Sequence record: NC_001330.1
Direction: 5' to 3' (one strand)
Source: Escherichia phage alpha3
DNA: 6,087 nt
Within the stretch, counting starts at the first letter, position 1. Each line of letters begins with the position of its first letter. Both the position numbers and the translations under genes were made by a program. Below, in pieces: positions 2,503 through 6,087 of this stretch. Under the pieces are notes generated by a model. It worked only from the letters and a program-made list of their open reading frames with translations. It was not told the origin of the DNA and ran no database searches.

Positions 2503-2955
2503 ATGAATATTGTTTCTGATGTTAATTACGCTACTTCCGTTGCTGCTCTTCGCATGTTGCAGGCTAGTGCTGTTTTGGATGTTACTGAGGAAGATTTCGA
2601 TTTTCTGACTGGTGATAAGATTTGGATTGCTACCGACCGTAACCGTGCGCGTCGTTGTGTTGAGGCTTGTGTTTATGGAACGCTGGACTTTGTTGGATAT
2701 CCTCGCTTTCCTGCTCCTGTTGAGTTTATTGCTGCCGTCATTGCTTATTATGTTCATCCCGTCAATGTACAAACAGCATGCCTCGTTATGGAAGGCGCGG
2801 AGTTTAGCGAAAACATTATCAATGGCGTCGAGCGCCCGGTTAACGCCGCTGAGCTCTTCGCGTACACCCTGCGTATTAAAGCAGGATTCAAAGAAACTGT
2901 AATGGATGCCGAGGAAAATGCTCGTCAGAAATTACGCGCAAATGGACTGAAGTGA
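2503..2955 (+). CDS. D: External scaffolding protein D, 150 aa
   Basis: Near-identity over long stretches with phiX174 D (ASAVLD.TE.DFDFLT..K.WIATDR.RARRCVEACVYGTLDFVGYPRFPAPVEFIAAVIAYYVHPVN). AAGGAG (2491-2496) with a 6-nt spacer. The track ORF begins at an upstream TTG 2473. Confidence 0.95.
   Translation: MNIVSDVNYATSVAALRMLQASAVLDVTEEDFDFLTGDKIWIATDRNRARRCVEACVYGTLDFVGYPRFPAPVEFIAAVIAYYVHPVNVQTACLVMEGAEFSENIINGVERPVNAAELFAYTLRIKAGFKETVMDAEENARQKLRANGLK
2675..2902 (+). CDS. E: Lysis protein E (MraY inhibitor), 75 aa, overprinted in the +1 frame of D
   Basis: MERWTLLDILAFLLLLSLLLPSLLIMFIPS is almost identical to the phiX174 E transmembrane domain (MVRWTLWDTLAFLLLLSLLLPSLLIMFIPS), including the conserved proline. 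GAGG (2662-2665) 9 nt upstream. The track extends it to GTG 2612. Confidence 0.9.
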   Translation: MERWTLLDILAFLLLLSLLLPSLLIMFIPSMYKQHASLWKARSLAKTLSMASSARLTPLSSSRTPCVLKQDSKKL

Positions 2956-2956
2956 T

Positions 2957-3031
2957 ATGAAGAAAGCACGTCGTTCTCCTAGTCGTCGTAAAGGTGCTCG
3001 CCTCTGGTATGTAGGCGGTTCTCAGTTTTAA
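2957..3031 (+). CDS. J: DNA-binding/packaging protein J, 24 aa, highly basic
   Basis: MKKARRSPSRRKGARLWYVGGSQF, starting one base after the D stop (TGAtATG). This is the short J form typical of G4/alpha3-type phages. Not in the ORF track because of its size. Confidence 0.85.
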   Translation: MKKARRSPSRRKGARLWYVGGSQF

Positions 3032-3035
3032 TTAT

Positions 3036-3054
3036 GGGCCCTTCGGGGCCTTTT
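3036..3054 (+). terminator. J-F intergenic hairpin with UUCG tetraloop plus T-run (TJ-like terminator / RNA stability element)
   Basis: GGCCC (3037-3041), TTCG loop, GGGCC (3046-3050), with a flanking G-U pair 3036/3051, then TTTT (3051-3054). Confidence 0.5.
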
Positions 3055-3066
3055 AAGGAAATTCAA

Positions 3067-4362
3067 ATGTCTAATGTACAAACTTCCGCTGAACGTGAAA
3101 TTGTTGACCTCTCTCATCTTGCCTTTGACTGTGGCATGCTTGGTCGTCTGAAGACTGTTTCATGGACTCCTGTTATCGCTGGCGATTCCTTTGAGCTTGA
3201 TGCTGTTGGTGCTTTGCGTCTTTCCCCTCTGCGTCGTGGTTTAGCTATTGATTCTAAGGTTGATTTTTTCACCTTCTACATTCCGCATCGTCATGTTTAT
3301 GGCGACCAGTGGATTCAGTTTATGCGTGATGGTGTTAATGCTCAGCCTCTGCCTTCTGTTACTTGCAATCGCTATCCGGACCATGCTGGTTATGTAGGTA
3401 CTATTGTTCCTGCAAATAACCGTATTCCTAAGTTTTTGCATCAGAGCTATCTGAACATTTACAATAACTATTTCCGTGCCCCGTGGATGCCTGAGCGTAC
3501 CGAGGCCAACCCGTCTAATCTTAATGAGGATGATGCTCGTTATCGCTTCCGTTGCTGCCACCTTAAAAATATTTGGTCTGCTCCGCTGCCTCCGGAAACC
3601 AAATTGGCTGAAGAAATGGGTATTGAAAGCAATTCCATTGATATTATGGGTTTGCAAGCCGCTTATGCGCAGCTTCACACTGAGCAGGAGCGTACTTACT
3701 TTATGCAGCGTTACCGTGATGTTATCTCCAGCTTTGGCGGTTCAACCTCCTATGATGCCGATAACCGACCGTTGCTTGTTATGCACACCGACTTCTGGGC
3801 TTCCGGTTACGACGTTGACGGTACCGACCAATCTTCCCTTGGACAATTCTCTGGTCGAGTCCAGCAGACGTTTAAACACTCAGTGCCGCGATTCTTCGTG
3901 CCTGAGCATGGTGTCATGATGACTTTGGCTCTGATTCGCTTCCCGCCTATCAGTCCGTTGGAGCACCATTATCTTGCTGGTAAGTCTCAGTTAACCTATA
4001 CCGACCTTGCTGGCGACCCGGCTCTGATTGGTAACTTGCCTCCTCGCGAGATTAGTTATCGAGATCTGTTCCGTGATGGTCGTTCTGGTATTAAGATTAA
4101 AGTTGCCGAGTCTATTTGGTATCGTACTCATCCTGATTACGTTAACTTTAAGTATCATGATTTGCATGGATTCCCGTTCCTTGATGATGCGCCTGGTACA
4201 TCTACTGGTGATAATCTTCAGGAAGCTATCCTTGTTCGTCATCAGGACTATGATGCTTGCTTCCAGTCTCAGCAGTTGCTACAGTGGAACAAACAGGCTC
4301 GCTATAACGTTAGTGTTTATCGCCATATGCCTACTGTACGTGATTCCATTATGACCTCTTAA
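3067..4362 (+). CDS. F: Major capsid protein F, 431 aa
   Basis: Extensive similarity to phiX174 F (MSN.QT.AER...DLSHL.F..G..GRL.T...TPVIAGDSFE.DAVGALRLSPLRRGLAIDS.VD.FTFY.PHRHVYG...QLLQWN...RDSIMTS). AAGGA (3055-3059) with a 7-nt spacer. The upstream in-frame ATG 3034 used by the track lies inside the hairpin and is not the start. Confidence 0.95.
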   Translation: MSNVQTSAEREIVDLSHLAFDCGMLGRLKTVSWTPVIAGDSFELDAVGALRLSPLRRGLAIDSKVDFFTFYIPHRHVYGDQWIQFMRDGVNAQPLPSVTCNRYPDHAGYVGTIVPANNRIPKFLHQSYLNIYNNYFRAPWMPERTEANPSNLNEDDARYRFRCCHLKNIWSAPLPPETKLAEEMGIESNSIDIMGLQAAYAQLHTEQERTYFMQRYRDVISSFGGSTSYDADNRPLLVMHTDFWASGYDVDGTDQSSLGQFSGRVQQTFKHSVPRFFVPEHGVMMTLALIRFPPISPLEHHYLAGKSQLTYTDLAGDPALIGNLPPREISYRDLFRDGRSGIKIKVAESIWYRTHPDYVNFKYHDLHGFPFLDDAPGTSTGDNLQEAILVRHQDYDACFQSQQLLQWNKQARYNVSVYRHMPTVRDSIMTS

Positions 4363-4367
4363 TTCAT

Positions 4368-4383
4368 GGGCCTTCGGGCCTTT
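4368..4383 (+). terminator. F-G intergenic hairpin with UUCG tetraloop plus T-run (TF-like)
   Basis: GGCC (4369-4372), TTCG loop, GGCC (4377-4380), then TTT. Near-duplicate of the J-F module. Confidence 0.45.
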
Positions 4384-4395
4384 AAGGATTTATCT

Positions 4396-4959
4396 ATGTA
4401 TCAGAATTTTGTCACTAAGCATGATACTGCCATTCAGACTTCCCGTTTTTCTGTTACTGGCAATGTTATTCCTGCTGCTCCTACTGGTAATATTCCTGTC
4501 ATCAATGGTGGTAGTATTACCGCTGAGCGTGCTGTTGTTAATCTTTACGCTAATATGAATGTTAGCACTTCTTCTGATGGTTCTTTCATTGTTGCTATGA
4601 AGGTTGATACTTCTCCGACTGACCCTAATTGTGTCATCTCTGCTGGTGTTAACCTTAGTTTTGCTGGTACCTCATACCCGATTGTTGGTATTGTTCGTTT
4701 TGAGTCTGCTTCTGAACAGCCTACTTCTATTGCTGGTAGTGAAGTTGAGCATTACCCAATTGAAATGTCTGTTGGTTCTGGTGGTGTTTGTTCTGCTCGC
4801 GATTGTGCTACTGTTGATATTCATCCTCGTACTTCTGGTAATAATGTTTTTGTTGGTGTGATTTGTTCTAGCGCTAAATGGACCTCCGGTCGTGTGATTG
4901 GTACCATCGCTACGACTCAGGTTATTCATGAATACCAAGTCCTTCAGCCGCTTAAATAA
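4396..4959 (+). CDS. G: Major spike protein G, 187 aa
   Basis: The N-terminus [11 protein letters not shown] and the C-terminus (RFESAS...[12 protein letters not shown]...VLQPLK) are similar to phiX174/G4 G (MFQTFISRHN...RFESS...PRTPGNNVYVG...CLQPLK). AAGGA (4384-4388) with a 7-nt spacer. The track's upstream ATG 4366 lies in the hairpin. Confidence 0.92.
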
Positions 4960-4984
4960 AAGGCTGCCGCACTCCCGGTTAGAT

Positions 4985-5069
4985 GCCTGCCCAGTGTAGG
5001 GCAGACCGAGCCGTACGGAGATACCCGATAAACTAGGAACGTGGAAGGCGTTAGCCGCCTTCCCTCCTG
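4985..5069 (+). other. Putative complementary (-) strand origin: primase (DnaG) recognition region in the G-H spacer
   Basis: The 135-nt G-H spacer contains a 6-bp hairpin CTGCCC/GGGCAG (4987-5004, loop AGTGTA), the palindrome CCGTACGG (5011-5018), and an 8-bp hairpin GGAAGGCG/CGCCTTCC (5043-5063, loop TTAGC) followed 4 nt later by CTG (5067-5069). G4-type origins are hairpins with a 5'-CTG-3' primer start on their 3' side. Confidence 0.45.
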
Positions 5070-5094
5070 CTAAGCCCAAAAAGGAGTTACAGCG

Positions 5095-6087
5095 ATGTTA
5101 GGTGCCGTTGTTGGTGGCATTGCCTCAGCCTTAGCTAGTGGTGCCGCTTCGAAATTATTTGGAGGCTCTCAGCGTGGAGTTTCTGTTATGCAGCAAGGTG
5201 CCGAGTCTGCCGGATTGACTAACGGCGGCGGCGCCATTTCTATGGATAATGACCAAGGTATTCAGTCTGCTATTCAAGGCTCGAATGTTCCTCCTGCTGG
5301 TCAGCTTCCTGAGTCTCAGAACTCTGGTGTTATGGCTGATGCTGGTAACATGCTTCGTAATGCTGGAAAGTCTTTGCTTGACGGAACTATTCAGGCTGGT
5401 TCTGATAAAGTTAAGCAAGCACTTATTGATAAGTTGATTGGAGGTAATGATGCTAAAGACCGAGGAAAGGCAACCCGCGATTACTTGGCTGCGGCCTTCC
5501 CTGAGCTCAACCCATGGGAACGTGCTGGAGCTGGTGCTTCCACTGCCGGGTTAGAATCTTCTGCTCAGAATCAGCAGAAAGAGATGCTGAAGATGCAATT
5601 GGATAATCAGAAAGATATTGCAAAAATGCAGATGGATAACAATTTGCAGATTGCTGGTATTCAGTCTGCCACTTCTCGTCAAAATACGAAGGATTCTGTT
5701 TATGCCCAGAATGAGATGCTTCAGTATAATCAACGTGAGTCGCAGGCACGCGTTGCGTCTATCCTCGCCAACACTGACCTCACGACTAAACAGGCTACCC
5801 ATGAAATCATGAGGATGGCCCTTACCCGTGCTCAGGAGACTGGTCAGCATTTGACTAACTCTCAGATTATGGCTTTGGAGAAAAAGGTCTATGCAGAAAT
5901 TGGAAAAATTCATCAAGATACTCAAAACTCTCGCTATGGTAGCTCTCAAGTTACTGCCGCTGCGAAAGATGTTACGAATATGATTACCGATGCCGCTTCA
6001 GGTGCTTCTGATTGGGTTTCTCAGCAGTGGAATTCGTTCTTTAAGGATGGTAAGTCCAACGGTATTTCCCTTAATACCAGAAAATAA
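5095..6087 (+). CDS. H: Minor spike / DNA pilot protein H, 330 aa
   Basis: Glycine-rich hydrophobic N-terminus MLGAVVGGIASALASGAASKLFGG (phiX174 H: MFGAIAGGIASALAGGAMSKLFGG), a conserved central block (RDYLAAAFPEL, IAGIQSATSRQNTKD, VYAQNEML) and the C-terminus KDGKSNGISLNTRK. AAGGAG (5081-5086) with an 8-nt spacer. The stop is the last codon of the window. Confidence 0.95.
   Translation: MLGAVVGGIASALASGAASKLFGGSQRGVSVMQQGAESAGLTNGGGAISMDNDQGIQSAIQGSNVPPAGQLPESQNSGVMADAGNMLRNAGKSLLDGTIQAGSDKVKQALIDKLIGGNDAKDRGKATRDYLAAAFPELNPWERAGAGASTAGLESSAQNQQKEMLKMQLDNQKDIAKMQMDNNLQIAGIQSATSRQNTKDSVYAQNEMLQYNQRESQARVASILANTDLTTKQATHEIMRMALTRAQETGQHLTNSQIMALEKKVYAEIGKIHQDTQNSRYGSSQVTAAAKDVTNMITDAASGASDWVSQQWNSFFKDGKSNGISLNTRK

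Follow-up and report, generated by a model that had tools for sequence, protein, structure and literature searches.

Introduction

Transcription of the phage phiX174 is punctuated by four rho-independent terminators, TJ, TF, TG, and TH, located after genes J, F, G, and H, respectively. TJ, TF, and TG are leaky, blocking 20–40% of transcription as measured by RNA-seq, with a read-through of 68% determined for TJ by qPCR, and TH is the strongest of the four. Folding energy is uncorrelated with measured terminator efficiency in this phage, and disruption of TJ speeds mRNA decay (Hayashi, Hayashi & Muller 1983 as cited in PMC3335065). Hairpins of the form (X)nCUUCGG(Y)n are described as common in phage intergenic regions, with varied functions (Tuerk et al. 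1988 as cited in PMC8948821, PMC2811024); in T4, the transcript of gene 32 has been reported to be stabilized by a CUUCGG hairpin at its 5' end. The extra stability of the UUCG tetraloop depends on 2'-OH groups.

Here we describe a short hairpin between genes F and G of Escherichia phage alpha3 (Microviridae, Bullavirinae, Alphatrevirus) and compare it with these systems. The window is the whole genome record NC_001330.1 (6087 nt), which matches a second alpha3 record, DQ085810.2, at 99.9%; the genes follow the order A-B-K-C-D-E-J-F-G-H, every one of them on the + strand. The hairpin carries no annotation in the GenBank records. No Rfam family matched at the gathering score over positions 2950-4480, where the two hits obtained were at chance level (E = 3 and 9.9) and neither fell at 4366-4395. 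We regard it as new, or at least unannotated, within a well-known class, and Kodaira et al. 1992 may already describe it.

Results

A hairpin and ribosome-binding site in the F-G spacer, and a sister copy in the J-F spacer

The genes flanking the spacer and the elements within it are as follows.

3031, + strand: end of gene J
3067-4362, + strand: gene F (coat protein), annotated at 3068-4363 in DQ085810.2 (offset +1) and listed as an open reading frame from 3034 or 3067 to 4362
4360-4362, + strand: stop codon TAA of F
4368-4372, + strand: 5' arm GGGCC, beginning 5 nt past the F stop
4373-4376, + strand: UUCG tetraloop with closing pair C4372-G4377 (cUUCGg)
4377-4381, + strand: 3' arm GGCCU, in which U4381 forms a G-U pair with G4368; one C fewer than in every relative
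4381-4383, + strand: short U run UUU, directly 3' of the stem
4383-4388, + strand: Shine-Dalgarno sequence UAAGGA of gene G, 7 nt 5' of ATG 4396
4396-4959, + strand: gene G (major spike protein), with ATG at 4396-4398; annotated at 4398-4961 in DQ085810.2 (offset +2)
5095-6087, + strand: gene H

The F-G spacer is 33 nt long in NC_001330.1 (33-34 nt across records) and reads TTCATGGGCCTTCGGGCCTTTAAGGATTTATCT. Its hairpin is of the cUUCGg (UNCG) type, with a UUCG loop closed by a C-G pair on complementary arms of the RNA-sense strand; in this record the stem comprises four G-C pairs and a terminal G-U pair, and the minimum-energy RNA fold of the spacer is this single hairpin, at -8.4 kcal/mol. 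After a further 2-3 nt comes the ribosome-binding site of G, which is rich in purines, matches the anti-Shine-Dalgarno sequence, lies 7 nt ahead of the annotated start of G, and is unpaired in the consensus structure.

A sister module occupies the J-F spacer.

3032-3066, + strand: J-F spacer with the sister module
3036-3041, + strand: 5' arm GGGCCC
3042-3045, + strand: UUCG loop
3046-3051, + strand: 3' arm GGGCCU
3054-3059, + strand: UAAGGA, followed by the start of F at 3067

The J-F hairpin (3036-3051) folds at -11.7 kcal/mol in NC_001330.1. A gapped alignment of both spacers gives 80% identity, with none of 2000 shuffles scoring as high, and an ungapped repeat finder also coupled 3028-3052 with 4359-4383 (family D10), so that the likeness of the two modules is not due to chance. 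The earlier note's proposal of a second hairpin and Shine-Dalgarno module in the F-G spacer, with arms, loop, and UAAGGA all in place, is thus borne out. The CTTCGG hexamer occurs twice in the alpha3 genome when both strands are counted, both times on the + strand and once in each short spacer, a number not above chance (2.34 expected).

Conservation and covariation in Bullavirinae

The module was present in both spacers of every Alphatrevirus genome examined (12 GenBank records plus IMG/VR contigs), with a stem of either GGGCC/GGCCC or GGGGC/GCCCC and a UUCG loop that was invariant in all J-F and F-G modules. Elsewhere in the subfamily, the J-F hairpin is GGGGC-UUCG-GCCCC in phiX174, has a UUCG loop in G4-like phages (UACG in one), and is GUGGGAC-CGCG-GUCCCAC in G4. 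TAAGGA was kept in all relatives. RNAalifold, applied to the F-G region of 12 genomes, retained only the 5-bp hairpin helix and left the Shine-Dalgarno sequence unpaired. A single-sequence fold had offered an outer helix (AAUUC 4361-4365 with GGAUU 4386-4390) that would mask the Shine-Dalgarno sequence; it was absent from the 12-genome consensus, and we rejected it.

We assessed covariation among 22 distinct 20-nt Bullavirinae modules, a set of related sequences in which J-F and F-G spacers were pooled. Paired states filled 83.8% of cells, and five of the seven pairs had changed on both sides. The covariation score was 0.340 compared to 0.124 ± 0.027 in shuffles, and it collapsed when the partners were slid; none of 500 shuffles reached it, a count that is not a probability because the sequences are related and pooled. 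Pair 7-14 was C-G in 11 modules, G-C in 10, and A-U in one. The C-G/G-C flip also occurs inside otherwise WA13-type F-G flanks (NC28 and MG945254 versus ID21 and others), where it is a real compensatory change. The U tract following the stem is not conserved: F-G spacers of phiK, St-1, and Lilleven continue as ...CCCAUUAAGGA, and J-F spacers of the WA13 clade as ...CCCCUAUAAGGA.

Locus searches starting from a single protein returned close relatives only, and an alignment query reached further. One divergent Bullavirinae-like contig (IMGVR_UViG_3300005306_000004, 5241 nt; F protein 65% identical) has, at bases 360-400, a J-F hairpin of GGGGG-CUUGU-CCCCC without the UUCG loop, followed by TTAATGGA in place of TAAGGA. 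This contig has a long F-G spacer that differs from its counterparts in alpha3, phiX174, and G4.

Comparison with the phiX174 terminators

The closest described counterpart of the alpha3 F-G hairpin is phiX174 TJ, in which GGGGC-UUCG-GCCCC is followed by ...GAGGA, compared to GGGCC-UUCG-GGCC(C) followed by UAAGGA in alpha3. Both elements share the same order of stop codon, hairpin, Shine-Dalgarno sequence, and start codon, on the same strand and in the same transcription unit. TJ is located between J and F, the position taken in alpha3 by the copy at 3032-3066, whereas the F-G copy lies one gene further downstream; the F-G hairpin is a paralog of the alpha3 J-F module, which is itself the positional homolog of TJ. 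With TF, the F-G hairpin shares its position between F and G and, presumably, a role as a leaky terminator, but the two are not homologous: the F-G spacer of phiX174 is 110 nt long and contains, instead of a UUCG hairpin, a long A/T-rich hairpin that overlaps ori(-) and the PriA site.

Like canonical rho-independent terminators of E. coli, the F-G element is a G+C-rich stem-loop located 3' of a coding region (5 nt past the F stop) and directly before U residues. Unlike them, it has just three U before an interruption (UUUAAGGA, 3 T in 8), and a consensus terminator scan requiring at least 5 T in 8 called neither the F-G nor the J-F hairpin; any termination at the F-G site is therefore expected to be weak. 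The experimentally defined TJ (UUACUUGA) also falls short of 5 T in 8, so this threshold does not exclude weak termination.

Three further features of the alpha3 genome resemble the transcriptional frame of phiX174.

696-725, + strand: match to a PA-like promoter upstream of gene A (TTGACA-18-TATATT, 11/12, sigma-70-like)
2445-2473, + strand: match to a PD-like promoter upstream of gene D (TTGACG-17-TATCTT, sigma-70-like)
26-61, + strand: strong terminator-like hairpin (14 pairs, then TTTTTAT) shortly past gene H on the circular map

The hairpin at 26-61 has the form of a canonical intrinsic terminator and is the probable equivalent of phiX174 TH, closing the transcription unit to which the F-G spacer belongs. 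Promoter-like matches in the alpha3 genome as a whole were no more numerous than the shuffle expectation. Because this frame, with its PA- and PD-like promoters, its terminator at 26-61, and its UUCG hairpins after J and F, mirrors that of phiX174, we read the F-G hairpin by analogy as a weak terminator and 3'-end stabilizer.

On balance, and with moderate confidence, we propose that the F-G hairpin acts as a leaky intrinsic terminator and mRNA 3'-end stabilizer adjoining the ribosome-binding site of G; a termination or stability function, as suggested in the earlier note, appears the most plausible one given the parallel with phiX174 TJ. In the late polycistronic mRNA D-E-J-F-G-H, the F-G spacer would fold into the short, G+C-rich, cUUCGg-capped hairpin, a minority of polymerases would halt there, and G and H mRNA would be stepped down relative to F. 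In transcripts ending at or trimmed back to the hairpin, 3'-to-5' exonucleases would be blocked and the upstream F message stabilized, and in read-through transcripts the unpaired UAAGGA past the hairpin would serve as the ribosome-binding site of G. Both termination and stabilization are proposed for alpha3 solely by analogy with phiX174. Since the U tract is unconserved, termination may be very inefficient, and the hairpin may act mainly as a stabilizer or in some other way. Functions independent of a U tract, such as shielding the message from exonucleases, insulating the ribosome-binding site, or stabilizing a processed 5' end, may weigh as much or more.

The same layout in unrelated phages

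We scanned IMG/VR with exact patterns consisting of the hairpin followed by TAAGGA within 6 nt. The GGGCC form was found in 23 stretches, seven of which (10 sites) came from alpha3-group genomes, and the GGGGC form in at least 120 stretches. An identical 13-14-nt hairpin followed by UAAGGA thus recurs in more than 140 viral contigs at the least, among them large contigs that presumably belong to dsDNA phages and are unlikely to be ssDNA. Among the matches listed, 114 of the 137 non-Bullavirinae sites had an open frame of at least 50 codons ending no more than 40 nt 5' of the hairpin and an ORF of at least 50 amino acids starting 3-12 nt past TAAGGA. At these 114 listed sites, which represent 76 distinct N-termini, the upstream stop was usually 5-9 nt from the hairpin and the downstream start mostly 5-8 nt past TAAGGA. 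The scan pattern forces the Shine-Dalgarno sequence, but neither the upstream stop nor the downstream start. The recurrence of the module accords with the published account of CUUCGG hairpins as frequent between phage genes.

The alpha3 F-G element shares with the CUUCGG hairpins described from phages a C(UUCG)G loop on a short complementary stem, an intergenic location, and the sense strand; this class is defined by structure, not by a single function, so membership tells little of mechanism. We also considered the modules as markers of capsid genes and set this idea aside, since a PHROGs scan of eight downstream proteins from unrelated contigs gave functions that were mixed or without annotation. 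In a series of environmental IMG/VR contigs of 4-15 kb (L040-L156), a recurrent GGGGCUUCGGCCCC with a U-rich linker and UAAGGA precedes small Ala/Thr-rich proteins that begin with MPNTK, MANTK, or MSNTK, two of which match phrog_18251.

We considered two other roles at the RNA level. The hairpin could be a translational insulator that presents the ribosome-binding site, shielding the Shine-Dalgarno sequence from long-range pairings, parting termination on F from initiation on G, and setting an independent rate for G. As such a role would have it, the hairpin in alpha3, and likewise at the 114 of 137 unrelated sites among the matches listed, always follows a stop codon by 5-9 nt and precedes UAAGGA by 0-6 nt, with the caveat that the association of hairpin and Shine-Dalgarno sequence is partly by construction because the search pattern demanded TAAGGA beside the hairpin. 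The unpaired Shine-Dalgarno sequence in the consensus fold, and the retention of hairpin and loop even where the U tract is not kept, also agree with insulation, but the experiments on the phiX174 J-F element, as far as they are cited in the sources used here, concern only termination and mRNA stability. We consider insulation rather unlikely as the principal function, and it is compatible with the hairpin being a terminator and stabilizer.

Alternatively, an endonuclease might cleave the spacer, leaving the G-H message with the hairpin as a guard at its 5' end. The roles known for CUUCGG hairpins are varied and include 5' stabilization in T4, and both alpha3 modules precede abundant structural genes, F and G. 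Set against this, we identified no cleavage site or RNase motif, the literature surveyed gave no evidence for processing in Bullavirinae, and the hairpin begins a mere 5 nt past the F stop. We judge a processing signal of this kind improbable.

Stem length and a probable one-base error in NC_001330.1

The earlier note counted 4 bp with a flanking G-U pair in the F-G stem against 5 bp in the J-F copy, and took this as a hint of divergence between the copies, or of tuning for different strengths of termination. The count is right for NC_001330.1, and a stem of four G-C pairs is peculiar to that record. Alignment of NC_001330.1 with DQ085810.2 revealed four substitutions and only two indels.

335: G/C substitution
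338: G/C substitution
2449: C/T substitution
3544: C/G substitution
193: indel, CCC versus CCCC
4379: indel, GGGCC versus GGGCCC

At both indels a C is absent from a C run in NC_001330.1, a pattern that looks like gel-compression errors in the older record. In DQ085810.2 the F-G stem is GGGCC/GGCCC, with five G-C pairs and a folding energy of -10.8 kcal/mol. The extra C is shared by this re-sequenced genome and by each of the nine relatives examined, close or more distant, including three environmental alpha3-like genomes (L158-L160; F protein 97-98% identical), phiK, St-1, and Lilleven, and in the genomes that carry it the F-G hairpin has at least five G-C pairs and folds at -10.8 to -12.9 kcal/mol. 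The 4-bp stem of NC_001330.1 therefore probably reflects either one base missed in sequencing or a deletion private to this record, and the natural stem probably has five G-C pairs.

Tuning of the two copies to different strengths is, in our estimation, very improbable. The free energies of both hairpins, whose calculation the note had proposed, do differ in its direction within NC_001330.1 (-8.4 kcal/mol for F-G versus -11.7 for J-F), but the difference hangs on the single missing C, which is present in DQ085810.2 and all relatives; once it is restored, the F-G hairpin reaches -10.8 kcal/mol. The order flips in phiK, St-1, and Lilleven, in which a flanking AUG...CAU lengthens the F-G stem to seven pairs (-12.9 kcal/mol) and makes it stronger than the J-F hairpin of the same genomes (-7.5 to -12.0 kcal/mol). 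With no consistent rule among the relatives that J-F is stronger than F-G, the tuning or divergence reading is unsupported, and folding energy is in any case no predictor of how efficient the phiX174 terminators are.

A further consequence of the missing C is that the G ORF of NC_001330.1 gains a false N-terminal extension (197 amino acids versus 187). We rejected ATG 4366-4368 as an alternative start of G, as it is in frame with G only in this record and has no Shine-Dalgarno sequence 5' of it. The 197-aa ORF (4366-4959) is spurious: with the extra C of DQ085810.2, ATG 4366 opens just six codons (ATG GGC CTT CGG GCC CTT TAA), and the unrelated phages with the same module have no ATG at the matching position. 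An ATG at 3034, before the J-F hairpin, likewise gives an apparent extension of F (442 amino acids versus 431), which remains in frame in alpha3 and in the environmental genome L158 but not in phiK.

Agreement between the two copies within a genome

In 14 of 15 Alphatrevirus genomes, both copies of the module had the same stem type (GGGCC/GGCCC or GGGGC/GCCCC). In NC28, which is one of these 14, both stems are alpha3-like although the F-G flanks are WA13-like. The F protein of this genome (modules at 3054-3085 and 4370-4406) places it in the WA13 clade, yet it has an alpha3-like J-F spacer and GGGCC stems in both modules; MG945254 has a GGGGC stem in J-F and a GGGCC stem in F-G. The spacers of these two genomes suggest recombination or gene conversion. 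It is conceivable, if doubtful, that the J-F and F-G modules of one genome evolve together by gene conversion or template switching between 35-nt cassettes or, more broadly, that a portable cassette of stop, hairpin, and ribosome-binding site is exchanged among phages rather than reinvented. Concerted evolution is hinted at only weakly, as the independent events are few and recombination is known in the group.

RNA or single-stranded DNA

The + strand serves as both the virion strand and the mRNA sense, and covariation alone therefore cannot separate a function of the RNA from one of the DNA. The evidence favors the RNA level: the strict UUCG loop fits an RNA tetraloop whose stability depends on 2'-OH groups, the predicted DNA folds are modest, large contigs that presumably come from dsDNA phages often contain the identical module, and the homolog of the G4 origin is located in the G-H spacer. 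The G-H spacer of alpha3 (4960-5094) is homologous to the F-G spacer of G4, which carries a primase-dependent complementary-strand origin (83% mean column identity in a two-sequence alignment), placing the alpha3 origin one spacer further downstream and leaving the F-G spacer with the hairpin and ribosome-binding site only. That the + strand hairpin is instead used in packaged or entering DNA, for replication, packaging, or protein binding, is extremely unlikely in view of these points, even though a DNA hairpin is predicted to form (-4.2 to -6 kcal/mol) and the F-G spacers of phiX174 and G4 carry the complementary-strand origin.

Discussion

The F-G hairpin itself, which we read as a leaky terminator and 3'-end stabilizer, matters little beyond annotation. 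Our comparison brings to light a likely one-base error in NC_001330.1 and cautions that one-pair differences between stems in a single record are not to be taken as regulatory tuning. The survey of viral contigs measures how stereotyped the succession of stop codon, cUUCGg hairpin, UAAGGA, and AUG is across phages, and this layout may help the annotation of terminators and ribosome-binding sites and supply parts for synthetic biology. For the alpha3-group phages, the two modules provide probable equivalents of TF and TJ, which would make the transcription model of phiX174 transferable to Alphatrevirus.
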